Shown here: piece by piece, positions 852 through 63,365 of the stretch | Position numbering within the stretch: position 1 is the stretch's first letter | Layout: each line of letters begins with the position of its first letter | Source of the DNA: an uncultured Chitinophagaceae bacterium | GTDB taxonomy: Bacteria; Bacteroidota; Bacteroidia; Chitinophagales; Chitinophagaceae | Length of the DNA stretch: 64,000 nucleotides | Direction of reading: 5' to 3' | Assembly (NCBI GenBank): GCA_964605065.1 | Contig: CAZSAQ010000003.1 | Span: 234,210-298,209 of the forward strand | Position numbers and translations under genes: made by a program | Notes under the pieces: generated by a model | The model's input: the letters and a program-made list of their open reading frames with translations, nothing else | Database searches by the model: none | Told to the model about the DNA's origin: nothing

Positions 852-3800
852 TTACCGGATCAGAAGCAGGTTGCCTGTTCTCTTGATTTCGCCGCAGAAC
901 GATGAGGCCCTGATCACGTAAACATAGCCTCCGGGGTCTTGCATTTTCCCATTAACGCGGCCATCCCAGCATCGGGTAGGGTCTTTCGTCGAAAATACCC
1001 TTTGACCCCAGCGGTTGAAGATGGAAAATTCTTTTATGGTTACCCCACCCCATTTCTGGATGCCGAAACAATCGTTCCGGCCATCCCCGTTTGGAGTAAA
1101 GGCATTGGGTAAAGTAAATACGATGTTGCCGCCATTGGTCACTTTAACCACGACCTCAGCGCTCGACTCGCATCCCTTGTTATCCTTTCCTGTTACCCGG
1201 TAGGTCTGCGTAGTGCTCGGGCTGGCAACAGGGTTTGCACTGTTTGGATTACTCAGGGTGGAGGCGGGAGACCAGGTGTAAGTCTGTGCTCCGGTTGCGT
1301 TCAGCACGGCCGAGGGGCTGCTGCAATCAATATCATTGGACCGGGTTGCAGCAACCGCGGGAGTATCGTTGACTGTTACTACTACATTGAAAACGCTATC
1401 GTACTGGCAGGTCCTTTCTGTAACTCTGACCGTAAGCGAACTGGTAGTACCGGGTGTAAAAACCGGATTTTGTCCGGCAGGGTTATCCAGGAACACCGAT
1501 GGGGTCCAGCTGTAATCTACCGTACCACCATTATTTCCCTGAAGTTGCACAGTTTTACCCAAACATACCTGCACGCCTGCTAAGGGAGCATTGAATACAG
1601 GTTTGGGTATGATGCTCACAAGAACCGAATCGGTTGCCGAGCATAGTGACTGGTCACTAACAGTTAAATAAAACCGCGTGGTTGCCGGTACGGTGGCTAC
1701 GGGCTGTGCGATACCTGCATCGCTTAAGAAATTTCCGGGACTCCAGGAGTAACTACCTCCGCCAGATCCCTGCAAAGTAACGGGCTGGTTGAGACAAACC
1801 AACTGATCAGGACCAGCCTGCGCAGTGGCAGTATCGACTCTTACATCCAGTAATGTACTGTCTGTACATCCTGCAATATCTGTTACTACCAGTTTAACCT
1901 GGTACTGCCCGGCTCTGGAATACAAATGACTGATCGCAGTTGATGCGGAGCTGGAGGTATTACCATCACCGAAATACCAGCGGTAATTGTTGATAGCATC
2001 CCGTTGAACCTGTACGTTTGAAGCGAACTGCAGGTTGCGGCAGGCCACCAGCTGCGGGTTGATCTGTATGGTTCCGATATTTTTTACAAACTGCGTGGAA
2101 GCTACCGGTATCTGCAGCGAATACAGTGAAACGCCGCTTTGGCCTGACGTTGCTCCCCAGGGATTGTTGTTGTCTTTTGTTATGACACCGTTCAGCCCTC
2201 CGTTCTGTATGTTGCTGATTGATGCGGGCAATCCGGCATTGCTAAACCAGGCGATACCGCCACCGCCTCCACCACCTGGTCCAATCCTTCCTCCACCCAC
2301 AGTGTTATAGATGATGAGATCTCCTCCTTTTCCTCCTGCTGTATTGGTGGTGGTTGCTGACAGAATTGTGTTTGCCTGCAACAGAATCGTTCCCCCGCCA
2401 CCACCGCCGCCGCTGCCATCGTGGCAATTGTCGGCATTGGGAAGCATACATTGCACCGCATTTGCTCCTCTCGCTGTGATCGAGTTTCCAAATCCTTCCA
2501 GGAACCCGGTTCGCAGAATGATGATCCCGCCGCCATTTCCGCCGTCCATATTGATGCCGGCCGGTTGATTGCAATGGCCGGCGCCGCCGCCACCACCCAG
2601 GTAGATCCTGTTGGCGGCATTTGAATAGGGAAGAGACTTGCCACCCCATCCGCGGTTATCGAAACTTGTTCCGGTACAATCTTCCAATTGGTAACCTCCA
2701 AATCCTCCCGTGCCTCCATTGGCCCCTCCGCCACCTCCGGAATTATGATCCAGTCCTCCGCCACCTGCACTGGCAGGAGAACCCTTCCCATTCCTGTACG
2801 GAACAGACAAAGAAGTAATAGATTCTCCTTTGGGAGCAGCCAGCGTGCTTCCTGCCGGATAGATATATTCGTTTTGCGAACAGTTGGACTGTAACACCAG
2901 CGAGTTGATGGCTTTACCACCTGCAAATCCTTTTCCCGTTACATCCATATCTGCCGCCATGATCAGGGTATCTCTTACATCAAAAGCCAGGATGCCACCG
3001 ATCTTGCCATTCCAGGGCAGACTGGTGAGTTTGTCGATGATGGTGGCTGTCTGATAATAGGGAATTCTCACCAACTGAACAGCAGCACCCGGAAAATCAT
3101 ATTGTTTGAGAATAACATTTCGAAGGATGATCGAGTTGCCCGATACCTGGTCCACGAGGTTGTATTCATAATTGCCCGCGTTTCGGTAATTGAGTACGTT
3201 TCCAAAGGCGGCAGAATTGGTAGAATCTACAATGGCGCCTTTCATTTGTATCAATAAAACCGTATCGCCTGTTTTGAAGGAAGAAGCGTCCGATACATTG
3301 AGTGCATTCGTGCATTTGTCCAGGCTTATCACTTCTGTATAAGAATTGATGACGCCTGTTATAGGGGTACCCCTGGGATGGCAGATTGCATCCGGTACAA
3401 CGGAAAGAACGATGATGTTGGAACGAACGCGGCACAGGGTTTCATCCACATTACTTCCTTCGCCGGCAATCATCCGGTACAGGATATGAGTGACGGCACC
3501 TACCGACGGGGCAACAAAATTATACTGGAAAACTGCCGAGGCAGGGATGTCCGACCAGTTCTGGCCCTGATCGTTGCTCACCTGCCAGCGATAGGCGGGA
3601 GTGGCATAGCCGGCAGACAGACTGCCGAAGAGGGTAACGGGGTCACCCGCGCATACACGGAGCGAATCCAATTGCAGGGACCCGCTGAAGGATGCATTGG
3701 CGTTGGGACCGCAGGGGCGAAAAGTAATATCGTCGATAGCCAGGTCATTTCCAGGCTGGGCAGTACCTCCCACACTGTTGTTGATCATTTTCAGAACAAC

Positions 3801-5136: not shown

Positions 5137-5967
5137 ATGCTACCAAGAATTTCGATTGTTATTCCCTGTTACAACCAGGGAAGCTGGTTGCTGGAGACCC
5201 TCGAAAGTCTGAATCTTTGCGACAGACAGCTTTTTGAGGTTATAGTCGTGAATGATGGATCTTCAGATCAAACCACGGTTAAGATTTTAACTGAGCTGAA
5301 AAATCAGGGGCTGAATGTTATTTTCCAGGAAAATGCCGGGCTTTCCGCAGCCAGGAACGCCGGAATAAATATTTCCAAGGGAGATTTTATTCTGCCGCTG
5401 GACTCCGATAACAAAATCAGGCCCGCCTATTTAACCCGGGCACTAGAAATTTTCGATAAGTGCCCTGAAGTTGATGTGGTATATGGAAACGCATTGTATT
5501 TTGGTGCCAGGGAAGGAGAATGGAAACCAGGCTCTTTCAATTTGCAAAAAATAATGATATCAAATTATATCGATGCCTGTGCGTTAGTCAGAAAAGAAAA
5601 ACTAAAGACGATTGGCTTGTATGATATCGCAATGAGAGATGGTTGGGAGGATTGGGATCTTTGGCTGCGTATAGCATTTTCAGATGGAAGATTTTTTTAT
5701 ATCGATGAAATATTATGGGACTATCGGGTTACTCAGAATTCCATGTCCAAAACTCTATATCGCTCCTATGAGAAGCCAAATAAAATAGAGAATTATGTTA
5801 ATGCCAAATATCCTGACAAGATGGGTCAGCAATATCTTGTTCAGAATATGATCAAAAGGTTCAAATCCTCGCCACTTCTATATATCGGAAAACTGGTCAT
5901 TCGGGCTTACTTTCCGAAGTACTATGATAAGTTACTTCAGAAAAATAAAATCAGAAACGGAATATGA
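5137..5967 (+). CDS. Glycosyltransferase family 2
   Basis: SIVIPCYNQGSWLLETLESL...VIVVNDGSSD is a GT2 motif with a DXD-like DSD. It is the first gene of a tightly packed operon. Confidence 0.85.
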   Translation: MLPRISIVIPCYNQGSWLLETLESLNLCDRQLFEVIVVNDGSSDQTTVKILTELKNQGLNVIFQENAGLSAARNAGINISKGDFILPLDSDNKIRPAYLTRALEIFDKCPEVDVVYGNALYFGAREGEWKPGSFNLQKIMISNYIDACALVRKEKLKTIGLYDIAMRDGWEDWDLWLRIAFSDGRFFYIDEILWDYRVTQNSMSKTLYRSYEKPNKIENYVNAKYPDKMGQQYLVQNMIKRFKSSPLLYIGKLVIRAYFPKYYDKLLQKNKIRNGI

Positions 5968-22115: not shown

Positions 22116-22724
22116 ATGACGACTGTTATTAATAAAGCAGACCCCGTAGTTTTCAATTTTGTACTGGAAAGACTTCAACGCTTTTTTCCTGTAACCCAGG
22201 AACAGGCCATGATGATGCTTAACTACAGCGAAATGCGTTACATCGATAAGAAAACGGTGCTGGTAGAAGAAGGGGGGATCGAAGATTATCTTAATATGGT
22301 TGTGAGCGGCCTGGCCCGGAAATACGTACGCAAAGGTAAAAGTGAGATCACCCTGCAGCTGGCTACCGAAGGCCATATCATACATTCCGAAATTTCATTT
22401 CTCCAAAGATGCCCCTCACCGGTGGTGGTGGAAACCATCGAACCCACCACTTTCATTTCGGTTTCCTATAGCAATTACCTGGACGCGCTGGAAAAAATGC
22501 CCGGTGCCGACCGTATCGGCCGGCTACTGGTAACTGCCATGTTTGTAAAGAAAGACGAAAGACATTATAACCAGTTGCAGCAAACCACGCGTGAGAGATT
22601 CCTGGAATACATGAAGAATCATCCCCACATGCTTCAACGCGTGCCGCAAAAATACCTGGCCTCCTATCTCAATATCAAACCCGAAACATTCAGCCGGCTC
22701 AAACACCTGGTTAAGCTGAAATAG
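22116..22724 (+). CDS. Crp/Fnr-family transcriptional regulator, tandem paralog of the upstream gene
   Basis: The HTH QRVPQKYLASYLNIKPETFSRLKHL is nearly identical to the neighbour and the N-terminal cNMP domain is diverged. Confidence 0.8.
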   Translation: MTTVINKADPVVFNFVLERLQRFFPVTQEQAMMMLNYSEMRYIDKKTVLVEEGGIEDYLNMVVSGLARKYVRKGKSEITLQLATEGHIIHSEISFLQRCPSPVVVETIEPTTFISVSYSNYLDALEKMPGADRIGRLLVTAMFVKKDERHYNQLQQTTRERFLEYMKNHPHMLQRVPQKYLASYLNIKPETFSRLKHLVKLK

Positions 22725-22908
22725 GAAAGAAAAAATGAATTAGCCAATGAGCCAATGGAGAAAAATTCCGAATGACGAATGACGAATTACTAAATACGGA
22801 TTAAATTAGCCAATTAGTGAATCACTGTTGTCCGGTTAAGACTTTACGGTTCTTTAAAAAAATACCCGCATTTCTTCCATCCGCATTGGCTCCCACCCTC
22901 ACCCCCAG

Positions 22909-22931: not shown

Positions 22932-23061
22932 AGTAATTCAGTAATTAGACTTTTCCTGGTATAATTACTGTTGCAGGTTTAATGCATGGTTTTTGAATAA
23001 TTGCCCGGCTTTATTCTGCAGCTGTTCACCACCGAAGAACTGAAGCTGGGCGTTAGACTAC

Positions 23062-23182: not shown

Positions 23183-23345
23183 CACTCGCTCCCGCACTCG
23201 CTCCCGCTCTCACTCCCGCTCTCGCTCTCACTCTCACTCTCAGTCACATTCTCTCGCTCTCAGTCTCGCCCTCTATCTCATTCTCTCTATCTCTATCTCT
23301 ATCTCATTCTCTTTCCCATTCTCATTCTCTTTCTCCTTCCGCGTC
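23183..23345. repeat. Degenerate hexanucleotide tandem repeat (CTCNYT)n, about 27 units, >80% pyrimidine on the + strand
   Basis: ctcgct cccgca ctcgct cccgct ctcact cccgct ctcgct ctcact ctcact ctcagt ... ctctat ctcatt. Units drift from G-containing to A/T-containing along the tract. Confidence 0.85.
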
Positions 23346-23362: not shown

Positions 23363-25246
23363 TTAGAGGTTTACCACGAGCAGCGGGATTTTCAATTCGT
23401 GGCGAACGCCTTCAATCGTTTCTCCATATAACCAGTCTTTAATGCCTGTATGACCATGCGCGCCGATGATGAGCATATCCGCCTCGTTTTCCTTTACCAG
23501 CCTGGCAATCTCCTTTGCCCGTTTGTTGAATCCGAGTTTTCCTTCGGCACGCAGCCCGTTTTGTTCGAGCAAGCGTACATATTGCTGCAGTCGTTCCTCG
23601 TCGGTACGCGTTTCATAGTCATCGCTCTCTCTTCCCAGCATTCGCGAGGAGGCGCTTTCCACCACATGGATCAGCAGGTACCGGGTATCAGGTTTACCCT
23701 GGCTGATGGCATGGGCCAGCAGCTTCTCGTCGTTTTCGCTGAAATCCAATGCCACCGCTATTTTCCGGTAAAATGGAATTTCGGAGAACACCAGGTTTTT
23801 GCCGGCAGGATGGAGGTTGATATCTTTTCCTCGCCTTTTCCTCGGTAGCCAGGGAAACAGGCTGATATATACCAGCAGGCCTAACAGCGAAGCAGAACCG
23901 GCGATTATCAGGATCTTCCAGCCGATATGTCCGGCACGGCCAAAGTAGTCGACAATTTCCCCGACCACCATTTTTATGTTCAGGTAAACAAGAATGGCAG
24001 CGATCAGCCAGGCAAGGAGTTTAACGTAAGGTTTGATCACGAACTCACCCATCTTCTCTTTATCGCTTACAAAATGTATAAGGGGGATGATGGCAAATCC
24101 CAATTGCAGGCTGAGGATCACCTGGCTGAGGATAAGAAGTTTGTCTACTTCCTGGTCTCCATAAATACCGATCAGCACAACAGCCGGAACGATGGCGAGC
24201 AAGCGGGTAAGCAACCTTCGCATCCAGGGATTGATACGAAGTTTCAGATAACCTTCCATTACGATCTGGCCCGCGAGGGTACCGGTTACTGTAGAACTTT
24301 GCCCGGCGGCTATCAGGGCAACGGCAAACAAAACCGGGGCCATTTTGGATCCCAGCAACTGGTTGAGCAACTCATGCGCCTGTTTCAATTCAGCCACATC
24401 TGTCCGGCCGGATTTAAAAAATACCGTTGCCGCCAATACCAGGATGGCTGCATTCACCAGGAACGCAATATTCAGGGCTATGGCCGAATCCAGGAAATTC
24501 CATTTCAAGGCCTGCCGGATTCCTGCACTCGTCCTTTGTATTTTCCGTGTTTGAACCAGGGCCGAATGCAGGTAAAGATTGTGCGGCATCACCGTTGCTC
24601 CAATGATACCGATGGCGATATAAAGCGCTTCATTATTGGGGATCGTGGGCACAAAGCCGGTCAACATTTCTCCGGGGGAAGGTTTTGCCAGGATGATCTC
24701 CACCAGGAAGCTGAGGCCAACAATGGCCACCAGCCCGATGATAAATGCTTCCATCTTTCGCATGCCCAACCGTTGAAGAAACAGCAGCAGAAAAGTATCG
24801 AAAACCGTAATGGCAACACCCCAGATCAGGGGAAGGCCCGTCAGCAAATGGATACCAATGGCCATACCCAATACCTCTGCCAGGTCACAGGCGGCGATGG
24901 CGATCTCTGCCAATGCGTACAGGGCGATGTTAACCATCTTCGGATAGGTTTCGCGATTGGCCTGCGCCAGGTCACGCCCTCTCACAATTCCCAGGCGCGT
25001 CGAAAGCCCCTGCAGCAGCAACGCCATCAGGTTGCTCATCAGCAACACCCAGATCAGTTTATAACCAAACTGGCTGCCACCTGCCAGGTCGGTAGCCCAG
25101 TTGCCCGGATCCATATACCCTACACTCACAAGATAGGCCGGTCCGAAAAACGCAAATGCCTTTCTCCAGCCCGATTTTTTCAGGCTGATATCTACCGAGC
25201 CATGCACATCGCTCAGCGAATGATCATGATGGGGGTTAGTCGTCAT
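23363..25246 (-). CDS. mntH: NRAMP-family divalent-metal (Mn2+/Fe2+) transporter fused to a C-terminal universal stress protein (UspA) domain
   Basis: The Nramp signature is GYMDPGNWATDLAGGSQFGYKLIWVLLMSNLMALLLQ. About 11 TM helices are followed by a C-terminal USP domain (KIAVALDFSEND...MLIIGAHGHTGIKDWLYGE...PLLVV). Confidence 0.9.
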   Translation of the reverse strand: MTTNPHHDHSLSDVHGSVDISLKKSGWRKAFAFFGPAYLVSVGYMDPGNWATDLAGGSQFGYKLIWVLLMSNLMALLLQGLSTRLGIVRGRDLAQANRETYPKMVNIALYALAEIAIAACDLAEVLGMAIGIHLLTGLPLIWGVAITVFDTFLLLFLQRLGMRKMEAFIIGLVAIVGLSFLVEIILAKPSPGEMLTGFVPTIPNNEALYIAIGIIGATVMPHNLYLHSALVQTRKIQRTSAGIRQALKWNFLDSAIALNIAFLVNAAILVLAATVFFKSGRTDVAELKQAHELLNQLLGSKMAPVLFAVALIAAGQSSTVTGTLAGQIVMEGYLKLRINPWMRRLLTRLLAIVPAVVLIGIYGDQEVDKLLILSQVILSLQLGFAIIPLIHFVSDKEKMGEFVIKPYVKLLAWLIAAILVYLNIKMVVGEIVDYFGRAGHIGWKILIIAGSASLLGLLVYISLFPWLPRKRRGKDINLHPAGKNLVFSEIPFYRKIAVALDFSENDEKLLAHAISQGKPDTRYLLIHVVESASSRMLGRESDDYETRTDEERLQQYVRLLEQNGLRAEGKLGFNKRAKEIARLVKENEADMLIIGAHGHTGIKDWLYGETIEGVRHELKIPLLVVNL

Positions 25247-32981: not shown

Positions 32982-33016
32982 AGGCTGCCTCATTTATTGA
33001 GGCAGCCTCTTTTTAT
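32982..33016 (+). terminator. Rho-independent terminator of the flotillin gene
   Basis: aggctgcctca-tttat-tgaggcagcct, then CTTTTTAT. Confidence 0.75.
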
Positions 33017-33073: not shown

Positions 33074-34087
33074 TTGACTCCTGCCGCCTGGAAAATACTA
33101 CAGCCCGTAATGATCCTTTTTGGAATTACCGTGATCGGTGTCGTGGGCTATATGATCATTGAACATTTTACCCTGGTGGAGGCGATCTATATGACCACCA
33201 TCTCGGTAACCACGGCGGGATTTACGGAAGTGAGGCCACTCAGCAACGAAGGCAGAATGTTTACCGTTTTTCTGCTGATCGTAAGCTGGTGTTTCTTTGC
33301 CTTTGCCCTGACCCGCCTCACCCAATACATAATTAGCGGAGAAATCAATAAATATTTTAAAACCCGCCGGACCATGAACTCAATATCAAAACTCAAGGAT
33401 CATGTGATCATTTGTGGCTATGGCCGAAACGGGCAACAGGCCGCGGCCACTTTAGGCTATCACGGACAGGAATATGTCGTTATAGAAAGTGACATCAAGC
33501 GGGTGGAAACAGCGCAGGCCGAAGATCCCGAATTGTTGATGATTCACGGAGACAGTACAGACGATGACGTGCTTAGAAAAGCCGGTATATTATCTGCCAA
33601 AGCCCTGATCAGTGCGCTGCCAATCGATTCCAATAACGTATTCATCGTATTATCCGCCCGCTCGCTCAACCCCAACATCCAGATCATCAGCAGGGCTTCC
33701 GAAAGCAGCACTTTCCCGAAGCTGAAAAAGGCGGGAGCGAATAATGTGATCATGCCCGACAAGATCGGCGGTACGCATATGGCTACCCTTGTATCCAAAC
33801 CGGATGTTATTGAATTTATTGATTATTTATCGGGGGAAGAAGGTGAGGCCATCCATATCGAGTCTGTTTCTTATGATCAGTTGCCGGATAATATACGTGA
33901 CCGCTCACTGAGCGAGATCATGGCCTGGAAAAAAACAGGCGTCAACTGTATCGGTCTCAAAGATGCGGAAGGAAAATTTCTGATCAATCCGCCGGAAGAT
34001 GTACTGGTAAAAGAAGGAATGAAAGTGCTGGTACTCGGCACCCGCCAGCAGATTCAGCGGATGAAAATTAATATTAGTGACGATTAG
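33074..34087 (+). CDS. Potassium channel protein with TrkA-N/TrkA-C (RCK) regulatory domains
   Basis: 2-TM pore region (TTAGFTEV), then VIICGYGRNGQQAA (Rossmann RCK_N) and a C-terminal RCK_C. Start is uncertain: TTG at 33074 or ATG at 33110. Confidence 0.8.
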   Translation: MTPAAWKILQPVMILFGITVIGVVGYMIIEHFTLVEAIYMTTISVTTAGFTEVRPLSNEGRMFTVFLLIVSWCFFAFALTRLTQYIISGEINKYFKTRRTMNSISKLKDHVIICGYGRNGQQAAATLGYHGQEYVVIESDIKRVETAQAEDPELLMIHGDSTDDDVLRKAGILSAKALISALPIDSNNVFIVLSARSLNPNIQIISRASESSTFPKLKKAGANNVIMPDKIGGTHMATLVSKPDVIEFIDYLSGEEGEAIHIESVSYDQLPDNIRDRSLSEIMAWKKTGVNCIGLKDAEGKFLINPPEDVLVKEGMKVLVLGTRQQIQRMKINISDD

Positions 34088-34259
34088 TTTGGTTTGCAGT
34101 TTGTAGTTTGCGGTTTGCAGTTTAATAATGTTGTTTACTAAAATTGATTTAAATTAGAATCAGTTTCCATTGGATTAATATCTGAAATACTTCTAGATTT
34201 TTGATAAGTAAAACCGCAAACTGCAAACCGCAAACTGCAAACCGCAAACTATAAACTAC
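34088..34259. repeat. Heptamer-periodic inverted-repeat element, copy A, filling a convergent junction
   Basis: Left arm (ggtttgc agtttgt agtttgc ggtttgc agttt) and right arm (aaaccgcaaactgcaaaccgcaaactgcaaaccgcaaact) flank an AT-rich 87-bp spacer. The right arm ends at the FKBP stop codon. Confidence 0.85.
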
Positions 34260-34981
34260 TTCAAAATATCCAGCAACTCGACTTCAAATATTAAAGTGGA
34301 ACCGGCTTTGATTACCGGACCGGCGTCACTGTCGCCATAAGCCAGATTGGAGGGGATAAACAATCTCCATTTGCTTCCAACGGGCATCATCGGCAGCGCT
34401 TCCACCCAGCCTGGAATCACCTGACCGATCATCAGTTCAATAGGCTCTCCTCTTTCAACAGAGCTATCGAAAACCGTACCATCGATCAGGGTGCCATGGT
34501 AATGAACTTTTACTTTATCGGTTACAGCTGGCTTGGGGCCGGTACCTTCTTTCAATATCATGTATTGAAGGCCGCTGGCAGTAGTAACTACACCCGGCTT
34601 CTTTTTATTTTCCGCCAGAAAAGCTTCTCCGGCCTTGCGTGTACCGGACGATTTTTCGCTTCTGACCTTCTGCATGTAAGCCATGATCACGTTGTTCACT
34701 TCAGATTCATTCAGGCCCGGTTTGCCCGAACTGCAATCAGAAAAACCTTTTGTGATCAGCGAACTGTTTATGTTGGTGATGCCTTGTTCTTTGTAAAAAT
34801 TGGCAATGCTGACGCCAATGGCATAACTGAAAGAATCAGTCGGGTTTTTCAATACGGGTCTGGTAACGGCAGTCTTGGAGGATTTTACCCCGGGCTTGAC
34901 CGCCGCCGGTTTTTTGGCGCCCCCCTGGGCATAACTTCCTAAAGAAGCACTCATCAGAAACAGGATCAACAATTTTTGCAT
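34256..34981 (-). CDS. FKBP-type peptidyl-prolyl cis-trans isomerase (secreted)
   Basis: Signal peptide, then VKVHYHGTLIDGTVFDSSVERGEPIELMIGQVIPGWVEAL. Confidence 0.9.
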   Translation of the reverse strand: MQKLLILFLMSASLGSYAQGGAKKPAAVKPGVKSSKTAVTRPVLKNPTDSFSYAIGVSIANFYKEQGITNINSSLITKGFSDCSSGKPGLNESEVNNVIMAYMQKVRSEKSSGTRKAGEAFLAENKKKPGVVTTASGLQYMILKEGTGPKPAVTDKVKVHYHGTLIDGTVFDSSVERGEPIELMIGQVIPGWVEALPMMPVGSKWRLFIPSNLAYGDSDAGPVIKAGSTLIFEVELLDILK

Positions 34982-40370: not shown

Positions 40371-40550
40371 CCGTAAACCTCAAACAGTAAACAGCAAACT
40401 GTAATCCCTCGATTATGCCATCGCCGTAGAGGAACGCAAAGATCAAAAACCGGTCAACGTCTTTTAGGCATGGACAATAAACAAACCGTAAACCACAAAC
40501 TGTAAACCTCAAACCTCAAACAGTAAACAGCAAACGCCAAAACCAAACCT
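40371..40550. repeat. Heptamer-periodic element, copy B (direct-repeat variant)
   Basis: Two same-orientation AAAC-type arms (ccgtaaa cctcaaa cagtaaa cagcaaa ctgtaa ... aaacaaa ccgtaaa ccacaaa ctgtaaa cctcaaa cctcaaa cagtaaa cagcaaa cgccaaa accaaacc). They share an exact 25-mer aaacctcaaacagtaaacagcaaac around a 74-bp spacer. Confidence 0.85.
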
Positions 40551-40552
40551 TC

Positions 40553-42442
40553 CTATTCCGCCCACTCGCTTAGCTCCAACCACCTCATTTCTTTTTCGTC
40601 CAGTTGGCTGGTAACTTCCATGATCCTGGTGGAAAGTGACTGGAGATGTTCATAGGAAGCATTGCTATTATTGAGCTCCTCGGTAATTTTCGTTTTTTCC
40701 GCTGTCAGTTGCTCGATCTCTTTGCTGAGCAGGTCAAACTCTCTTTTTTCTTTAAATGAAAGCCGGCGTTTTGCTTCCTGTTTGGGAGTTGCTTCGGTGC
40801 TATTGCTGACCTGGCGGGCTGCCATCACGCTTTCGGCTTCAGACAGTTCCTGTTCGCGTTGCCAGATCCGGTATTGACTGTAGTTGCCGGGAAAATCCCT
40901 GATCATCCCGTTGCCTTCGAATACAAGCAAATGATCCACCAGCCTGTCCATGAAATATCGGTCGTGAGAAACAATGAGCAGGCAACCCTGGAATTCGCTC
41001 AAAAAATTTTCCAGTACGGCCAGTGTCGGCAGATCGAGATCATTGGTGGGTTCGTCGAGGATCAGAAAATTGGGATTGCGGAATAATATGGATAGAAGAT
41101 GGAGTCTTCTTTTTTCTCCGCCGCTCAGCTTACTGATATAGGTGTATTGTTTATCGGGATCAAACAGGAAAAGTTGCAGGAACTGAGCGGCACTGAGTGA
41201 TCCGCCACTGACAAGAGGAAAATTTTCAGCGATGTTCTTTACAAATTCGATCACCCGCATATCCTCTTTCCACTGCAATCCCTGCTGGGAGTAATTGCCG
41301 AACACTACCGTATCACCCACGTTTATTTTTCCGCTGTCGGCTTCTTCCAGTTGCTGGATGATATTGATAAAAGTCGATTTGCCCACCCCATTGGGGCCAA
41401 CGATCCCCACTCTTTCGCCTTTTTTGAAAGTGTAATCGAAGCCTTTCATAATTACCTTATCACCATAAACCTTATATACTTTTTTCAATTCCAGGATCTT
41501 TCCGCCGAGGCGGTTCATTTTCATATCGAGTTGCAGTTTCTCTTCCGCAATTTTCTGTTTGGCGACCTTTTCTATTTCATAAAAATTATCCTGCCGGCTC
41601 TTGCTTTTGGTAGTTCTGGCCCTGGGTTGCTTTCGCATCCATTCGAGTTCTTTGCGGTAGGTGTTCCTGGCCTTGTCGATGGTAGCGGCTTCGCTCTCCT
41701 GGCGGGCAGCTTTTTTCTCGAGATAATTTTCATAGTCGCCTTTATATACATAGAGGCTGCTCCGGTCAAGTTCCCAGATTTCTTCGCACACGGCATCGAG
41801 AAAATATCTGTCGTGGGTAACCAGCAGCAGGGTGATGCGTTCCTGGTTCAGGTAGTGCTCCAGCCATTCCACCATACCCACATCGAGATGGTTGGTGGGT
41901 TCGTCCATGATCAGCAAAACATGTTTGTGTTCAAAGCCGATGTCTATAAGGGTTTTGGCGAGCGCAACTCTCTTGCGTTGACCTCCGCTGAGTGTATTGA
42001 CGGCCTGGTGTAATTGGTGAATATTGAGTTTGCCCAGGATTTGTTTAACCTTGGCATCAAAGTCCCAGGCGCCCAGTTCATCCATTCGGATGATGGCGGC
42101 CTGGATGGCGGGCTCGTTGTCCGAATCGCAGGCATCCTCGTATTTTTTAATGGCCTCGATAAACGGATTCTGGTGATGGAAAATATTATCCAGCACGGAT
42201 TGACTTTCGTTAAAATGCGGTTCCTGTTCGAAAAGGGCCACCGTCACATCTTTGTTGATCCATACCTTGCCTTCATCGGCAGGTTCAGTGCCGGCCAGGA
42301 TCTTCAGCAGGGTTGATTTGCCGGATCCGTTCCTGGCCACCAGGGCGATCTTGTCGCCTTCTTCTATATGGAATGTAATACCTGAGAACAGCGGCTGTAT
42401 GCCATACGACTTGCCCAGACCTTCTACCGAAACATAATGCAT
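40553..42442 (-). CDS. ABC-F family ATPase (two ABC cassettes + C-terminal coiled-coil extension, Uup/EttA-like)
   Basis: Two Walker A motifs (ARNGSGKST, GPNGVGKST), LSGG signatures and a C-terminal coiled coil. No TMD. Confidence 0.9.
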   Translation of the reverse strand: MHYVSVEGLGKSYGIQPLFSGITFHIEEGDKIALVARNGSGKSTLLKILAGTEPADEGKVWINKDVTVALFEQEPHFNESQSVLDNIFHHQNPFIEAIKKYEDACDSDNEPAIQAAIIRMDELGAWDFDAKVKQILGKLNIHQLHQAVNTLSGGQRKRVALAKTLIDIGFEHKHVLLIMDEPTNHLDVGMVEWLEHYLNQERITLLLVTHDRYFLDAVCEEIWELDRSSLYVYKGDYENYLEKKAARQESEAATIDKARNTYRKELEWMRKQPRARTTKSKSRQDNFYEIEKVAKQKIAEEKLQLDMKMNRLGGKILELKKVYKVYGDKVIMKGFDYTFKKGERVGIVGPNGVGKSTFINIIQQLEEADSGKINVGDTVVFGNYSQQGLQWKEDMRVIEFVKNIAENFPLVSGGSLSAAQFLQLFLFDPDKQYTYISKLSGGEKRRLHLLSILFRNPNFLILDEPTNDLDLPTLAVLENFLSEFQGCLLIVSHDRYFMDRLVDHLLVFEGNGMIRDFPGNYSQYRIWQREQELSEAESVMAARQVSNSTEATPKQEAKRRLSFKEKREFDLLSKEIEQLTAEKTKITEELNNSNASYEHLQSLSTRIMEVTSQLDEKEMRWLELSEWAE

Positions 42443-48894: not shown

Positions 48895-49417
48895 TATGCG
48901 TAATAAATTTATTCCCCTGGCCGCCGTTATATTGATGGCGGGTGCCTGCAATAATAGTACAAGCGAAGCGGGAGCTACTCCCAAAGACACCGCCGCTGCC
49001 AAACACGATACTTCCGGTCACGAAGGTCATATGGCCACCACAACCAAGGAAGTTCCTCCCATGCCGGAAATTCCAACCGGGGCCAAAGTATTTTTTAAAA
49101 ACCTGAAGAACGGACAAACCGTCAAATCTCCGCTGAAAGTTGAAATGGGCGTAGAAGGTATGGCGCTGGATACAGCCAATGGAATAGTGAAAGCCGCTTC
49201 GGGACACCATCATATCCTGATTGATCTTGATTCGGTGGCTGCAGAGTCTGTAGTGCCGAAAGATTCAATCCATCTGCATTTCGGAAATGCACAGTCTTCT
49301 GCCGAAGTGAAGCTGTCGCCGGGTAAACACAAACTCACCCTGCAATATGCCGATGCGCTTCACAGATCATATGGAAGCCGCCTCACTTCGACTGTTACGG
49401 TGAATGTGAAGCAGTAA
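48895..49417 (+). CDS. Small lipoprotein, His-rich (DUF4399-like, tentative)
   Basis: MRNKFIPLAAVILMAGACNNS is a lipobox. GHHHILIDLD motif. The track ORF begins upstream inside the GAF gene. Confidence 0.6.
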
Positions 49418-49520
49418 GCGATTGGGGTTTATCGTTTCACGTTTCTGGTTTCACGTTGTTTAGCCATTCAGAGTTCATGCGCATAAACGAAAAACGTGAA
49501 ACGATAAACGCCAATCGGTC
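49415..49520. repeat. Heptamer-periodic inverted-repeat element, copy E (GTTTCAC variant)
   Basis: cgattggGgtttatcgtttcacgttt ... aaacgtgaaacgataaacGccaatcg are ~28-bp near-perfect inverted arms around a 27-bp loop. It spans from the stop of the + gene to the stop of the - gene. Confidence 0.85.
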
Positions 49521-50007
49521 ACTTCGTTTCTTCAAACACCCCGGTCTGCTTGTTTTTTCTGACATTATCCCAGTCGAAGGCTCTTCCGTTCATGGCAATG
49601 TATACTCCCGGAGGTAGTGTCTGAACAAAGGCCAGGGCATTGCCGAGATTGAAGAACCCGTCGGAGCTGCCGAATTTGTAGGGAATCATCGCCCCTGTCA
49701 GAACGATGGTCTTGCCCTTTACTTTTTCGGCAAGTACTTTGGCGGTAACAGACATCGTATCGGTGCCATGCGTGATCACGATCTTGTCTTCCGTCGCGTT
49801 TCGGCATTGATGCGCGATCAGTTCGCGGTCTTCATCTGTCATCAGCAGGCTGTCGATCATCATCAGTGTTCTTACCGTGATGTCGAGGCTGCTTCTGCTG
49901 CGAGCCAGCATTTCGGGGAGATGGGTTTCCTTAAAAAAAAGTTCGCCGGTCAATTCGTTGTATTCCTTATCGAATGTGCCGCCGGTTACAAAAAAGCGGA
50001 TAGACAT
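49519..50007 (-). CDS. Short asparaginase N-terminal-domain protein
   Basis: MSIRFFVTGGTFDK...VITHGTDTM are asparaginase motifs. Only about 160 aa, so the C-terminal domain is absent. Confidence 0.7.
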   Translation of the reverse strand: MSIRFFVTGGTFDKEYNELTGELFFKETHLPEMLARSRSSLDITVRTLMMIDSLLMTDEDRELIAHQCRNATEDKIVITHGTDTMSVTAKVLAEKVKGKTIVLTGAMIPYKFGSSDGFFNLGNALAFVQTLPPGVYIAMNGRAFDWDNVRKNKQTGVFEETK

Positions 50008-57702: not shown

Positions 57703-58977
57703 ATGTCAAAAGAAATATTAGCCGTGATACTCGGCGGAGGAGCAGGAACCAGGTTATATCCCTTAACAGCCAGCCGCTCGAAACCCGCAGTACCCATCGC
57801 CGGTAAATACCGCCTGGTAGATATTCCCATCTCCAACTGTCTCAACTCGAATATCGCCCGGATGTTCGTGCTAACCCAGTTTAACTCGGCCTCCCTTAAC
57901 CGCCATATCAAAAATACTTACCACTTCAGCGCATTCAGTTCAGCGTTTGTAGACATCCTCGCAGCGGAACAAACTCCCGACAACCCTACCTGGTTCCAGG
58001 GTACTGCCGACGCCGTGAGACAGAGTCTTCGTCACATCGAACCTTTTTCGAGCGATTATGTGCTGATCTTATCCGGCGACCAGCTGTATCAGATGGATTT
58101 CCGCGAAATGATCAATAACCATATCGATAAAAAAGCCGATATCTCCATCGCTACCATACCAGTGGGCGATCGGGAAGCACCCGAGTTCGGAATCCTCAAA
58201 AAAACAGACGACGGACTGATCAGCTCTTTCGTGGAAAAACCCAAGAAAGAAGTATTGTCGCAGTGGGTCAGCGATACCGGCCCGGAAATGCAGCGCCAGG
58301 GAAGAAATTACCTCGCCTCCATGGGTATTTATATCTTCAATCGCCAGTTGCTCACTGATCTGCTGCTGGATGAATGCAAGGAAGCTACCGATTTCGGAAA
58401 AGAGATCATCCCGCAGTCGATCTCCAAATACAAAGTGGCCAGCTACCAGTACGAAGGATACTGGACCGATATCGGGAACATCTATTCCTTTTTCGAAGCC
58501 AACCTCGGTCTTACCCAGGAAATTCCCGATTTCAACCTCTTCGACAACAACAAGGCCATCTATACGCGCGCGCGCATGCTGCCGCCCGCCAAGATCAGCG
58601 GTACCACTCTCGAAAAGACCATCATCGCCGAAGGCTGTATCATCAATGCCTCCAGGGTAGAGAACAGCGTGATCGGAATCAGGACCCGCGTCGGATCGGG
58701 AACCACCATCGTCAGCAGCTATGTAATGGGTAGCGATTATTTCGAAACTCTCGAAGAAATGAAACACAATGCGGAGAGAGGCGTCCCTAAATTAGGTATT
58801 GGTGATCGCTGCTATATCCGCAATGCCATCCTGGACAAAAACTGCCGCATCGGCGACGATGTCCGCATCAATGGAGGCCATCACCTCGAAAATACCGACC
58901 ATTCCCTGTATACCGTTAAAGACGGAATAGTTGTAGTCAAAAAAGGAGCCGTTATTCCGAATGGATTTGTGATATAG
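57703..58977 (+). CDS. glgC: Glucose-1-phosphate adenylyltransferase
   Basis: ILGGGAGTRLYPLTASRSKPAVPIAGKYRLVDIPISNCLNS. Confidence 0.9.
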   Translation: MSKEILAVILGGGAGTRLYPLTASRSKPAVPIAGKYRLVDIPISNCLNSNIARMFVLTQFNSASLNRHIKNTYHFSAFSSAFVDILAAEQTPDNPTWFQGTADAVRQSLRHIEPFSSDYVLILSGDQLYQMDFREMINNHIDKKADISIATIPVGDREAPEFGILKKTDDGLISSFVEKPKKEVLSQWVSDTGPEMQRQGRNYLASMGIYIFNRQLLTDLLLDECKEATDFGKEIIPQSISKYKVASYQYEGYWTDIGNIYSFFEANLGLTQEIPDFNLFDNNKAIYTRARMLPPAKISGTTLEKTIIAEGCIINASRVENSVIGIRTRVGSGTTIVSSYVMGSDYFETLEEMKHNAERGVPKLGIGDRCYIRNAILDKNCRIGDDVRINGGHHLENTDHSLYTVKDGIVVVKKGAVIPNGFVI

Positions 58978-58980
58978 TTA

Positions 58981-59092
58981 GGTTTGCAGTTTGCTGTTTG
59001 CCGTTTGCGGATAGACCAGTCTAAAAGCTGTTACTTCCTCTTTAAAAGACGGGGGTGGAGCTTAACAGCAAACTGTAAACGGCAAACCTCAA
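58981..59092. repeat. Heptamer-periodic inverted-repeat element, copy C
   Basis: ggtttgc agtttgc tgtttgc cgtttgc gg ... 55-bp spacer ... cagcaaa ctgtaaa cggcaaa cctcaaa. It lies downstream of glgC. Confidence 0.85.
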
Positions 59093-59185
59093 ATAACTGT
59101 CCGGAACCCTAAACCCCTACAAAGTGTACTAATTACACAATATCTCCTTATCTTTCCATAGATACATTAACCATTACGATCGCTT

Positions 59186-60579: not shown

Positions 60580-62451
60580 ATGAGAAAGAATGGCTTCCTG
60601 TTTTTTTGGCTCCTGATCGTGAGCTTCTCCTTTGCGCAAACAGATGTGTATCCCACCCACTGGTGGACCGGCATGAAGATGTCAAAGATCCAGTTGCTGA
60701 TCCGATCAGAAAACATCAGCGGCCCGGAAAGACGCATTGCCATGGTCAGTTACCCGGGCGTAAGAGTGCTGGGAGTAGAGAAACTGGAGAACCCGAATTA
60801 CCTGCTGGTAAACCTTGATATCTCCGCACAGGCAAAGCCCGGATCGTTTCCTATAAAAATAGTAGGGGGCAACAAGCCGGTTCAATTTACTTATGAGCTG
60901 AAGGCGAGAGACCGGGAAGATGGAAAATCGAGGGTGCAGGGTGTCACTTCGAAAGATCTGGTTTACCTCATCATGCCCGACCGTTTCGCCAATGGAGATC
61001 CCTCCAACGACGCGTTTGATAGTTACAAAGACAAAGAAGCGAACCGCAACAGTAAATATGCCCGTCATGGGGGCGACCTGAAAGGCGCCCAGGATCACCT
61101 GGATTATTTGTCGGACCTTGGCGTAACGACCATCTGGTTAACGCCGCTTACCGAAAATGACATGCCCAAAATGCGCGAGGGAAGCTGGGATATGTCGGGC
61201 TATCACGGTTACTGGTTTACGGACCACTATAAAGTAGATAAGCGTTTTGGCGGCAATGAAGCGTATAAAGAATTTATCACCACCGCCCATCGCAAGGGCC
61301 TCAAGGTAATCCAGGATGCGGTGTACAATCATATCGGACTGGAACATTGGATCTATCTCGATCCGCCTTCCAAAGACTGGATCAACCAATGGCCCACATT
61401 CACCCCGCCCAACCACCGTGTTGAAACCATGTTCGATCCATACGGCTCCGACTACGATAAGACCAATATGGTGAAGGGATGGTTTGTTAGGCACCTGCCC
61501 GATCTCAATCTCGCCAATACTTCCCTCGCCAACTACCTCATTCAGCATGCCATCTGGAGCGTGGAAGAATTCGGATTCGATGGGTTTCGCGTGGATACCT
61601 ATAAGTATTGCGACGAGAATTTCCTGAATAAAGTAAATGCGGCGCTGGTGAAAGAATATCCTGGCATCACCACCTTTGTAGAAGCCTGGGCCAACAATGA
61701 ACAGGGCAATGCGTACTTCGTTCAGAACAATCTCAACATTCCTTTTAAACACAACGCAGGTGGTGCGCTGGATTTTCCACTTTGCTTCTCGATGCATGCG
61801 GCCATGAACCAGCCCAATGGATGGACCGAAGGAGTTAATCGATTGTACATGACGCTGGCGCAAGACCGAGCATACAAGGACCCGCTGACCAATTGCATCT
61901 TCCTCGATAACCACGACCTGGACCGGGTATACTCTGTCATCGGGGAGGACTGGAACAAAATGAAATGGGGGATGAACTGGTTGCTAACCTTGCGGGGCAT
62001 ACCTCAGCTTTACTATGGTACCGAAATTCTGATGAAGAATTTTAAACAGCCGACAGACGCGGAAGTCAGGCTCGATTTCCTCGGTGGATTTCCGGGCGAC
62101 GCAGTCAACAAGTTCACAGCAGCCGGCAGAACGGAAAAAGAGAACGAAGCCTTCAATTATATCCGGAACCTCGCTCGTTTCCGCAAAAGCTCCTCCGCCC
62201 TCACTACCGGTAAAACCATGCAGTTCATCGTTCGCGATGGAGTGTATACGTATTTCAGGTACGACGACAAACAAACCGTCATGGTCATTACCAATACCGG
62301 CGATAAAATCTATACCCCGGACTGGACAATCTTCAAGGAAAGAACGGCGGCCTTCAAATCAGCCCGCGATATTCAAACCGGTAAAATGACCCCACTCGAA
62401 AACCTGCAAATAAAACCGAAAGAAGGATTGGTGTTGGAGTTGATGAAATAG
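60580..62451 (+). CDS. Glycoside hydrolase family 13 alpha-amylase (secreted, SusG-like)
   Basis: Signal peptide, DAVYNH, GFRVDTYKY (catalytic Asp), EAW and FLDNHD are the GH13 regions I-IV. Confidence 0.85.
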   Translation: MRKNGFLFFWLLIVSFSFAQTDVYPTHWWTGMKMSKIQLLIRSENISGPERRIAMVSYPGVRVLGVEKLENPNYLLVNLDISAQAKPGSFPIKIVGGNKPVQFTYELKARDREDGKSRVQGVTSKDLVYLIMPDRFANGDPSNDAFDSYKDKEANRNSKYARHGGDLKGAQDHLDYLSDLGVTTIWLTPLTENDMPKMREGSWDMSGYHGYWFTDHYKVDKRFGGNEAYKEFITTAHRKGLKVIQDAVYNHIGLEHWIYLDPPSKDWINQWPTFTPPNHRVETMFDPYGSDYDKTNMVKGWFVRHLPDLNLANTSLANYLIQHAIWSVEEFGFDGFRVDTYKYCDENFLNKVNAALVKEYPGITTFVEAWANNEQGNAYFVQNNLNIPFKHNAGGALDFPLCFSMHAAMNQPNGWTEGVNRLYMTLAQDRAYKDPLTNCIFLDNHDLDRVYSVIGEDWNKMKWGMNWLLTLRGIPQLYYGTEILMKNFKQPTDAEVRLDFLGGFPGDAVNKFTAAGRTEKENEAFNYIRNLARFRKSSSALTTGKTMQFIVRDGVYTYFRYDDKQTVMVITNTGDKIYTPDWTIFKERTAAFKSARDIQTGKMTPLENLQIKPKEGLVLELMK

Positions 62452-62464
62452 AGAGAGTTTATGG

Positions 62465-62614
62465 GTGGTTTGAAGTTTACCGTTTGAGGTTTACGGTTCG
62501 ATCGCAGTCAGCGTACTCCTCTGAAGTATAGTCTGTCGTTAAGAACAGACAGATTTAAATACGATTACGAATGATTCAACAGAAAACCTCAAACTTCAAA
62601 CCTCAAACAACCGA
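62465..62614. repeat. Heptamer-periodic inverted-repeat element, copy D, filling a convergent junction
   Basis: ggtttga agtttac cgtttga ggtttac ggtt ... 84-bp spacer ... aaaacctcaaacttcaaacctcaaacaacc. Confidence 0.85.
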
Positions 62615-62618
62615 CCCC

Positions 62619-63365
62619 TCACAACATCACCAGCCAAATATTCCGGTTAGCCCATTTGCCCCATTCCTTGAGACTGCTTTGCAGGGATGTTTGTAATTGT
62701 GTGAAGTTGGTTTTTTTTCCTTTGGTAGGAGCGGCCAGGTCTTTGGCGGTTACTTCCACAACCTGCAGTTTAGTGGCAAACCAGGTGGTATTGATACGGG
62801 GGATGGCGATGCCAAGGATCATGCCGGGTAAGCCATTGAATCCTTCAGGGCCGCCGGTAACCATGATTTCATCCGTATAGAATGCGAAAATGAACACAGA
62901 GTCCATCATCAGGCCGGTTGCCTTGCGACAGTTGAAACCGGCGATCTTGCGGGTATCATTTGTCAGCTTCCATTCTATTTTACGCAGGGTGTCCTGAACC
63001 AGGTAAGTATTTTCAAAAACCTGTTTCTGACTTACAAAACTCTGTGTGCTGTAATCGTTGTGAACGATATTCTCTGAAGCCGGCCCGGTGCCCCAGCCAT
63101 TGGGCCGCTGATTGGGATTCTCCCGGCCAGGCTTATAGGTAGACTGGTTACCATCGAAAAAGAAATCAAAATACGTGATGTCGTATTGCGGAATGCTTTT
63201 CTTCAGCTCCTGTATCCACTCGCCATTTCCTTCCGAATCGAGTTGCTTGTGTACATTGACTTTTCTTTCGAATTCAATTTTACCCTTGGTAATGAATTGC
63301 TGTGCCTGCAGCGCCATGGGTGCCAGCAGTACTATGCACAATATGGTCAGAATTTGTTTTTTCAT
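62619..63365 (-). CDS. GLPGLI-family protein (TIGR01200)
   Basis: MKKQILTILCIVLLAPMALQAQ signal. The namesake motif is FNGLPGMILGIAIP. Confidence 0.75.
   Translation of the reverse strand: MKKQILTILCIVLLAPMALQAQQFITKGKIEFERKVNVHKQLDSEGNGEWIQELKKSIPQYDITYFDFFFDGNQSTYKPGRENPNQRPNGWGTGPASENIVHNDYSTQSFVSQKQVFENTYLVQDTLRKIEWKLTNDTRKIAGFNCRKATGLMMDSVFIFAFYTDEIMVTGGPEGFNGLPGMILGIAIPRINTTWFATKLQVVEVTAKDLAAPTKGKKTNFTQLQTSLQSSLKEWGKWANRNIWLVML

Follow-up and report, generated by a model that had tools for sequence, protein, structure and literature searches.

The closest described counterparts of the elements reported here are the heptamer repeats of Xanthomonas (GGGAATC) and Nostoc (GGGGA(C/T)T), which are heterogeneous, mostly consist of four units and are about 90% intergenic (Rehm et al. 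2015, PMC4692102). The distance to the upstream open reading frame (ORF) is about 28 nt. The repeats are rare between divergent genes and include 70-75 cases of two sites in convergent orientation; the same gene pairs carry them in related species with strong variation in length and sequence, and their function is unassigned (PMC4692102). The subject of this study is a family of five elements, built of GTTT-type heptamers, in a 64,000-nt stretch of DNA from an uncultured Chitinophagaceae bacterium (GenBank assembly GCA_964605065.1, contig CAZSAQ010000003.1, positions 234,210 to 298,209 of the forward strand), which is called the window throughout. The elements were named E1 (34088-34259), E2 (40371-40550), E3 (49415-49520), E4 (58981-59092) and E5 (62465-62614).

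Heptamers are also the most abundant class among long simple sequence repeats of 5-11 nt, as the work of Mrazek et al. (2007) is summarised in PMC4679880. These repeats and the STRR heptamers of cyanobacteria are, like the window family, tandem, mostly non-coding, lineage-specific and attributed to slippage; as far as that summary goes, they are described as direct arrays, and a paired, polar layout following stop codons does not form part of the description. The TAACTGA heptamers of Beggiatoaceae, cyanobacteria and a few Bacteroidetes (MacGregor 2015, PMC4679880) are intergenic arrays as well, but differ from the window family in being mostly direct, placed just upstream of start codons and composed of homogeneous units, for which a translational role was proposed. 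The same paper mentions other heptamer repeats in intergenic regions of Bacteroidetes, which are absent at the same site in close relatives (PMC4679880).

The window family resembles the Xanthomonas/Nostoc type in its 7-nt unit with about four or five conserved and two or three free positions, in its short intergenic arrays near the end of the upstream ORF, in the presence of two convergent sites with the G-rich strand first (four of the five loci), in its scarcity between divergent genes and in its recurrence at the same gene junctions of relatives despite strong variation in length and sequence. All architectural features of that type are thus shared, apart from the potential for G-quadruplexes. 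In contrast to that type, its units contain only isolated G residues, the core is AT-rich and the host belongs to the Bacteroidota. As the window units have no G tracts, they can form neither G-quadruplexes nor i-motifs, only duplex hairpins. G tracts define the published examples, not the architecture, and since the same polarity is found without them, the published G-quadruplex interpretation may not be the general explanation. Equivalence to terminator slots, inversion of the centre and copying between loci, all presented below, are not reported for the Xanthomonas/Nostoc repeats (PMC4692102). The window family is thus a genus-specific member of a known, functionally unexplained repeat class. 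An earlier reading of the window, made from the sequence alone (hereafter the original prediction), had taken it for an undescribed repeat family; this is correct for the exact family, as the literature searched contained no paper on GTTT-type or any other heptamer hairpins in Chitinophagaceae, and incorrect for the class, which has been described (PMC4692102, PMC4679880).

The pattern (GTTTNNN)2GTTT (GTTTNNNGTTTNNNGTTT) has 27 matches on the two strands of the 64-kb window, against 0.00 expected from 100 dinucleotide shuffles, and every match lies within 34092-34256, 40375-40535, 49427-49509, 58982-59087 or 62468-62608. Tandem Repeats Finder (TRF) reported the same period-7 arrays at these five sites. 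All five copies of the original prediction were therefore confirmed, and they form, as it had proposed, a real family associated with the 3' ends of genes rather than the outcome of random slippage at one site. Among 47 strict units, representing 22 distinct sequences, GTTT is fixed and the next base is R in 40; G does not occur at position 6 (C in 25, A in 13, T in 9), and position 7 may be any base. The formula N-GTTT-R-M given earlier holds approximately: in part of E3 the fifth base is C, and the sixth can be T.

All arrays are intergenic, comprise 3-8 strict units each and start 0-16 nt from stop codons (Table 1). E1, E3, E4 and E5 are inverted pairs with the GTTT arm first, and a 27-nt stretch of the E1 right arm is perfectly complementary to the left arm. 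E2, as the original prediction implied, is a direct pair: both of its arrays read AAAC on the plus strand and have 25 nt in common, the second being equal to the first minus three units. The flanking genes of E1 encode a TrkA-type K+ channel (+) and an FKBP isomerase (-), those of E3 a DUF4399 protein (+) and an asparaginase (-), and those of E5 a cyclomaltodextrinase (+) and a Porph_ging protein (-); each of these three elements occupies a whole convergent gap. E4 lies downstream of glgC (+) and E2 downstream of an ABC-F gene (-); none of the five is in a divergent gap. The claimed gene context, i.e. three convergent junctions and a fourth inverted copy after glgC, was found to be accurate, and the same is true of the non-conserved spacers (30-90 bp as predicted, 27-91 nt as determined here), whose similarity between copies is at the level of shuffled sequences.

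Table 1. Component parts of the five GTTT-heptamer elements in the window (columns: part, position, strand, description)
E1 left arm	34088-34126		five strict GTTTRNN units (34092-34123), 4 nt past the K+ channel TAG stop (34085-34087)
E1 spacer	34127-34207		AT-rich; unlike the other spacers
E1 right arm	34208-34259		seven NNYAAAC units (34211-34256), reaching into the FKBP stop (34256-34258, -)
E2 promoter-distal array	40373-40404	-	four GTTT units; direct copy of part of the 40481-40549 array
E2 central segment	40405-40480	-	own imperfect hairpin, about 40416-40475
E2 stop-proximal array	40481-40549	-	eight strict plus degenerate GTTT units; 3 nt from the ABC-F stop (40553-40555)
E3 left arm	49418-49457		GCGATTGG, then four GTTTNNN units (49427-49451), 9 nt past the DUF4399 stop (49415-49417)
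E3 spacer	49458-49484		with inner units 55 nt, inverted in congener A
E3 right arm	49485-49518		four AAAC units, then CCAATCGG; ends at the asparaginase stop (49519-49521, -)
E4 left arm	58978-59010		four GTTTGCN units (58982-59006), 4 nt past the glgC stop (58975-58977)
E4 spacer	59011-59065		inner hairpin; kept in congener A
E4 right arm	59066-59092		three AAAC units (59070-59087)
E5 left arm	62455-62498		GTTTATG, then four units (62468-62492); begins 6 nt past the cyclomaltodextrinase stop (62449-62451)
E5 spacer	62499-62583		inner hairpin GTCTGTC...GACAGAC
E5 right arm	62584-62618		four AAAC units (62584-62608), 10 nt from the Porph_ging stop (62619-62621, -)

Relatives are referred to by L-numbers, each denoting an individual locus or contig; protein look-ups yielded two congeners, A and B. 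The window itself matches an 871-kb JGI metagenome contig (Ga0310362_1565729), and its glgC gene is at most 85% identical to its counterparts in Chitinophagaceae genomes in GTDB. Congener A is one 50.7-kb contig (L329 and L334), with a K+ channel and an MFS transporter 94% and 99% identical to those of the window; congener B (L335) has an MFS transporter of 97% identity. The slots covered are those of E1 and E2 in A, of E3 and E4 in both, and of E5 in B. Every one of them holds a GTTT-family array, that of E2 being reduced to remnants (only two or three degenerate units in A), and in about 56 kb of congener sequence no GTTT arrays were found outside the five slots.

The content of these slots has been reshuffled. 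In E1 of congener A, the spacer and the four units differ from those of the window, and only the outer 14 nt beside the FKBP stop are common to both. The central 55 nt of E3 are inverted in congener A (46/55 identical when inverted versus 36/63 in direct orientation), which is the expected product of recombination between inverted arms. At E4, congener A kept the spacer and the right arm, whereas the left arm was replaced by nine units that have 29 exact nt (TTGAAGTTTACCGTTTGAGGTTTACGGTT) in common with the E5 left arm of the window. Similarly, E5 of congener B and the E1 right arm of the window have 30 exact nt in common, and E3 of the window and E1 of congener A have 19. These common strings indicate that arm sequences move between non-orthologous copies, apparently by ectopic conversion or template switching, and such copying accounts for the one core of the whole genus without the need for a binding factor. 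All contigs with an identical amylase are 100% identical over the elements, i.e. no strain-level polymorphism was seen among them. Another contig, of 10706 bp (L330), ends 1 nt past the K+ channel stop codon, where the E1-slot array begins, which indicates that such repeats break short-read assemblies; they are probably under-represented in metagenome-assembled genomes (MAGs).

More distant syntenic relatives form a graded series: L336 and L337 (MFS transporter 90-91%), L332 and L333 (K+ channel 81% and 79%), and L205-L208 (cyclomaltodextrinase 72-76%). GTTT arrays are essentially absent from L332, L333, L336 and L337, with the exception of a single 3-unit AAAC run in L337, and are rare in 1.29 Mb of GTDB relatives, where GTTT-first pairs occur in L134 and L190; such pairs are also present in the metagenome contigs L256, L257 and L278. 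The E1 slot of L332 is occupied by a canonical bidirectional terminator, the E3 slot of L337 by a canonical terminator, and the E4 slots of L205, L206 and L337 by long-stem terminators with a T tract. Read by eye, the regions downstream of glgC in 45 relatives contain canonical terminators in a large share of cases; in L125 and L127 this slot has no spacer at all.

In further genomes the slots are filled with heptamer hairpins of other units. Three Flavihumibacter species carry GTGAAAG/GTGAGAT hairpins in the glgC slot, and these end in T tracts (L139, L146, L152). TAAGTTA hairpins are found in L145 and GGCGAAT hairpins in L205, and L336 has GTGAGTC in both E3-region gaps, AGCTNNN in the E4 slot and, in the E5 slot, AAATGTA arrays on either side of a terminator core. 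Judging from this series, heptamer hairpins evidently occupy the terminator slot, and the slot is more conserved than the sequence within it. Arrays of 8-mers were detected in 3' slots as well (L206 11858-11893, L207, L337 3624-3667 and L333 13677-13828), therefore the phenomenon is not strictly limited to period 7.

Several features of these relatives deserve separate mention. The 8-nt units are either palindromes in themselves (TTGGCCAA, TTAGCTAA) or components of inverted 8-mer arrays (GTTGAnAA / TTnTCAAC). In L333 (5247-5284), the first unit of a (TGATGGG)5 array is the TGA at which the K+ channel gene stops, and the arrays of L145, L146 and L152 start inside the glgC stop codon, which suggests that the duplication of a stop-containing heptamer can seed an array. 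The Chitinophagia MAG MFD06435 (L134, 21 kb) contains 21 arrays of period 7, in which more than a dozen units are represented; nearly every intergenic gap is heptamer-built, including one divergent gap with a 130-nt GTTTTTA array.

A survey of 80 relatives' loci (about 1.3 Mb) gave 98 intergenic arrays of period 7, compared with 17 of period 8, 5 of period 6 and 6 of period 9. Their density was 1.1-1.3 per kb in convergent and tandem gaps versus 0.3 per kb in divergent gaps. The arrays are strongly polar: in 12 of the 14 array-array inverted pairs the 5' arm has more G than C, and on the sense strand the stop-proximal arrays have a G content of 22% and a C content of 7% (40 arrays with G>C versus 16). 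The polarity is reversed in start-proximal arrays (C>G in 11 versus 2). Neither control behaved in this way, as the first 40 nt of array-free 3' regions contained 19.0% G and 18.7% C, and 107 canonical terminator stems were divided into 46 with G>C and 51 with C>G. The idea that the arrays provide stop codons in all frames was rejected. Stop triplets do exceed their reverse complements on the sense strand (224 versus 129), but TAA is about as frequent as TTA (74 versus 72) and non-stop triplets containing G are far more skewed, which indicates a G>C skew and not selection for stops; in the window family there is no stop-triplet excess.

In viral contigs 82 of the 88 GTTT arrays are solo, so inverted pairing is not automatic. 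One putative phage contig from IMG/VR (L067, 9.6 kb, 58% GC) has CCGTTTA/CCGTTTT (GGAAAAC) arrays at six intergenic sites (array positions include 1908-2004, 2580-2597, 3335-3595 and 5900-5917); two of these sites are GTTT-first inverted pairs, and one array is just upstream of a start codon. The pattern scan of metagenomes was dominated by eukaryotic telomere-type repeats (GTTTAGG, GTTTGGG), with few bacterial-like cases (L256, L257, L278). It also returned contigs of 1.2-5 kb bounded at both ends by inverted (GGGGTTT)5-8 with the G-rich strand outward (L217-L219, L224, L235, L236, L247, L251, L263, L268-L270, L283), which are likely to be gene-sized linear chromosomes of eukaryotes (ciliate-type nanochromosomes), unrelated to the elements.

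As RNA, E1, E3, E4 and E5 fold into long imperfect hairpins, far below shuffled controls. The minimum free energy (MFE) of E1 is -67.4 (z -9.5) on the plus and -59.2 (z -9.4) on the minus strand; the values for the two strands are -46.0 (z -7.4) and -46.8 (z -8.4) for E3, and -45.8 (z -4.8) and -36.1 (z -3.5) for E4, and E5 reaches -45.6 (z -3.2). The inverted arms of these four can thus fold in transcripts from either side, as had been foreseen. Within elements, the two arms co-vary clearly in E1 and E3 and show no co-variation in E4 and E5. Both strands of the window family have an A/C-rich 3' arm, and what follows this arm is A/C-rich as well. At gathering thresholds, Rfam 15 gave no matches in the window; with a relaxed E-value, the E1 region alone (33900-34450) gave far-sub-threshold, generic long-hairpin matches to plant miRNA precursors. 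Mimicry of the Bacteroidetes promoter (TTTG-N17-23-TAnnTTTG) was considered and rejected, as there were 3 matches versus 2.1 expected, none of them within an element.

Based on these observations we favour, with about equal measures of confidence and doubt, the explanation that genus-specific heptamer arrays, remodelled at the DNA level, build post-stop hairpins which have a role at the 3' end. The making and remodelling of the arrays at the DNA level is largely shown by the unit changes in 7-nt steps, the flipped centre of E3 and the arm strings copied between loci. Slippage changes the number of units in 7-nt steps, recombination of the two arms flips the centre, and copying of arms between distant copies maintains one GTTT core in the genus. 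RNA transcribed from either flanking gene would present the C-poor GUUU arm first and the complementary AAAC arm last, and would fold back on itself as an imperfect hairpin whose arms pair over stretches of roughly 15-35 bp. As four or five of every seven positions are fixed, pairing should be independent of the unit register, and therefore the hairpin should survive slippage.

Such a hairpin may replace the terminator hairpin of related genomes. Rho-independent terminators are similar to the window elements in position, in the presence of a hairpin and in their occurrence in the orthologous slots of relatives; they differ in having a U tract, in their much shorter, less AU-rich paired regions and in lacking the G-first skew of the arms. 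The canonical, partly bidirectional terminators in orthologous slots make a terminator-like or 3'-end-hairpin role the best functional guess. Most likely, as far as position and predicted fold can indicate, the hairpin, which lacks a classical U tract, serves to define mRNA 3' ends or to protect them and acts as an insulator between convergent genes. This could be achieved by termination or pausing, or by shielding the RNA from 3' exonucleases, in the manner of REP elements or of Rho-dependent ends after trimming, and a first arm poor in C may prevent a single strand favourable to Rho or RNases from being exposed while the hairpin is still open. The bidirectional terminator or RNA-stability element of the original prediction is thereby retained in part: relatives hold canonical terminators in these slots, whereas the elements contain no T-tract site and have an A/C-rich 3' arm.

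Several results weigh against the proposed 3'-end role. E2 has no significant fold (z -1.1) and is a direct pair of arrays that form no hairpin with each other. The terminator scan (hairpin followed by a T tract within 0-2 nt) found no site inside any of the five elements, and no U tract follows any of the hairpins. The arms of E4 and E5 match the arms of other elements as well as their own partner, which suggests that selection for exact pairing is weak, and after the arm replacement in congener A the E4 arms pair poorly. Among relatives, 23 of 74 arrays are located beside start codons. A predicted terminator was present in 5 of 17 convergent gaps with arrays versus 44 of 92 without arrays, a difference which is not significant, is limited to convergent gaps and was obtained with a crude terminator predictor. 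The better folding of the sense than of the antisense strand in 8 of 11 tandem contexts is suggestive only.

For these reasons among others, neutral debris is a serious rival, and the one to which we give the largest share of the remaining probability, though a minority one. It assumes that the arrays are a functionless by-product of mutation: replication in this clade slips preferentially in 7-nt steps, arrays pile up where they are harmless, i.e. after stops and away from promoters, and palindromic remnants of terminators seed inverted growth. This agrees with the unrelated unit sequences of different lineages in the same slot, with the frequent start of arrays at or within the stop codon and their extension up to the coding limit, with the arrays before start codons and with the weak pairing at variable positions in E4 and E5. 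Some arrays flank an intact terminator core with a T tract (L146, L152 and the E5 slot of L336), so their outer arms would seldom be transcribed. The literature, too, attributes the excess of heptamers to slippage of the polymerase (Mrazek et al. 2007, cited in both PMC4679880 and PMC4692102). On the other hand, occupancy of the slots was kept across three congeners despite turnover of the sequence. The G-first, C-poor polarity, absent from array-free 3' regions and terminator stems, is not predicted by slippage alone, and the almost exclusively solo arrays of viral contigs indicate that inverted pairs do not arise automatically.

A function of another kind, which we regard as improbable, would be that of a binding platform, on which a trans-acting protein, e.g. 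one with a cold-shock domain, reads GUUU in a 7-nt register and controls closure of the hairpin, read-through or decay. Proteins of the cold-shock-domain type contact 6-7 nt of U-rich single strand per monomer. A precedent is CspB of B. subtilis, which, according to the review of it in PMC4679880, binds T-rich heptamers with one protein per heptamer. The GTTT core is invariant in all slots of the three congeners despite the fast change elsewhere, which favours a platform; ectopic copying, however, explains a common core without any factor. In the window no candidate gene is linked to the elements. Moreover, related genera have arrays of the same period in the same places but of unrelated units, which are often rich in purines, which shows that the period is generic and not tied to GTTT, and for this reason the suggestion in the original prediction that the 7-nt phasing reflects a protein- or RNA-binding register was abandoned.

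REP/BIME sequences of enterobacteria have a conserved palindromic unit of about 35 nt, are tied to RAYT transposases and are transcribed into 3' hairpins that protect mRNA. Like the window elements, they are intergenic, lie at 3' ends and often form inverted pairs. It is nevertheless very doubtful that the elements are non-autonomous mobile elements (MITE- or REP/BIME-like) which insert at gene 3' ends and use the heptamer arms as terminal inverted repeats. The inverted arms, the intergenic 3' location, the presence of several copies and the identical 29-30-nt arm strings at non-orthologous congener sites would fit such an origin. However, the arms are tandem heptamers with no conserved REP-type palindromic unit, only a 4-5-nt core is common and the order and number of units differ. 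The spacers are unrelated between copies, and no target-site duplication was seen in the flanks of the five elements of the window, which speaks against the REP/BIME-like repeat of the original prediction. The slots are conserved in the congeners, which have no new sites in about 56 kb, and E4 of congener A lost one arm only, with the spacer and the other arm still orthologous, which points to conversion and not to transposition.

Equally implausible is a classical Rho-independent bidirectional terminator, as the stable hairpins right after the stops of convergent genes, and the Flavihumibacter glgC-slot hairpins that do end in T tracts (L139, L146, L152), are outweighed by the A/C-rich 3' arm and following sequence on both strands of the window family, by its long (roughly 15-35 bp), AU-rich paired stretches and by the scan, which called none in the elements but canonical sites at 32982, 36344, 47559 and 53395. 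Ordinary terminators are used at other 3' ends of the window (32982, 36344, 38613, 47528 and 53372).

The preferred explanation, a 3'-end role of post-stop hairpins, can be extended further, although we consider this extension rather unlikely. G-first heptamer palindromes of Bacteroidota, Xanthomonas and cyanobacteria would then constitute a cross-phylum class of 3' ends that are independent of the U tract, with lineage-specific 'house' units kept by concerted evolution or by a trans-acting factor, and with a polarity that is functionally required. Transcription would begin with the C-poor arm, and the C-rich arm would be sequestered immediately upon its synthesis, possibly in order to deny Rho or RNases access to the RNA while the hairpin is open. 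Owing to the 7-nt period, pairing would not depend on the register and would withstand slippage.

Other repeats were noted in the window. Past the stop of the gene at 22116-22724, the sites noted (22738-22787 and 22934-22950) comprise short arrays of AATGAGCC (x2.5) and CGAATGA (x2.7) and, about 150 nt downstream, a partly complementary GTAATTC/AGTAATT stretch; one 3' slot of the window, at least, thus carries a periodic array other than GTTT. A hexamer tract of polypyrimidine type, (CTCNCT)n, covers about 155 nt (23185-23340) directly past the stop of the minus-strand gene 23363-25246, the congener ortholog of which has Nramp and Usp domains. It is a mirror repeat, of the triplex-prone type, in a 3' slot, and it was kept as a tract in congener A (L329 90-248). 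At 59124-59138, upstream of the gene for an MFS (maltodextrin-type) transporter that follows glgC, there is a GTGTAC-N5-GTACAC-like palindrome (here AGTGTACTAATTACACA), then a TCCTTATCTTTCC motif and AACGATYGCTTATG. The palindrome is conserved in many Chitinophagaceae, has matches in L154, L160, L164, L171, L184, L185, L197, L200, L202, L205, L206 and L334-L337 and is a candidate operator/promoter of the glycogen/maltodextrin cluster.

To our knowledge, no function has been shown for any bacterial heptamer repeat, even though in many bacteria no other long simple repeats are as over-represented as heptamers. What is new here is the comparative evidence for the position of the window family in terminator slots and for slippage, inversion and inter-locus copying as the modes of its change. 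The present set of loci constitutes a clean comparative series, in which the same junctions carry, depending on the lineage, a canonical terminator, a GTTT-heptamer hairpin or hairpins of unrelated heptamers, and in which strand polarity sets all the arrays apart from ordinary terminator stems. For genome annotation, it is of importance that such repeats are missed by terminator predictors and break short-read assemblies. As heptamer arrays are also carried by cultured Chitinophagaceae, i.e. Flavihumibacter profundi, F. fluminis and Pinibacter soli (L139, L146, L182), these species might be helpful in deciding whether the arrays are 3'-end elements or slippage debris.

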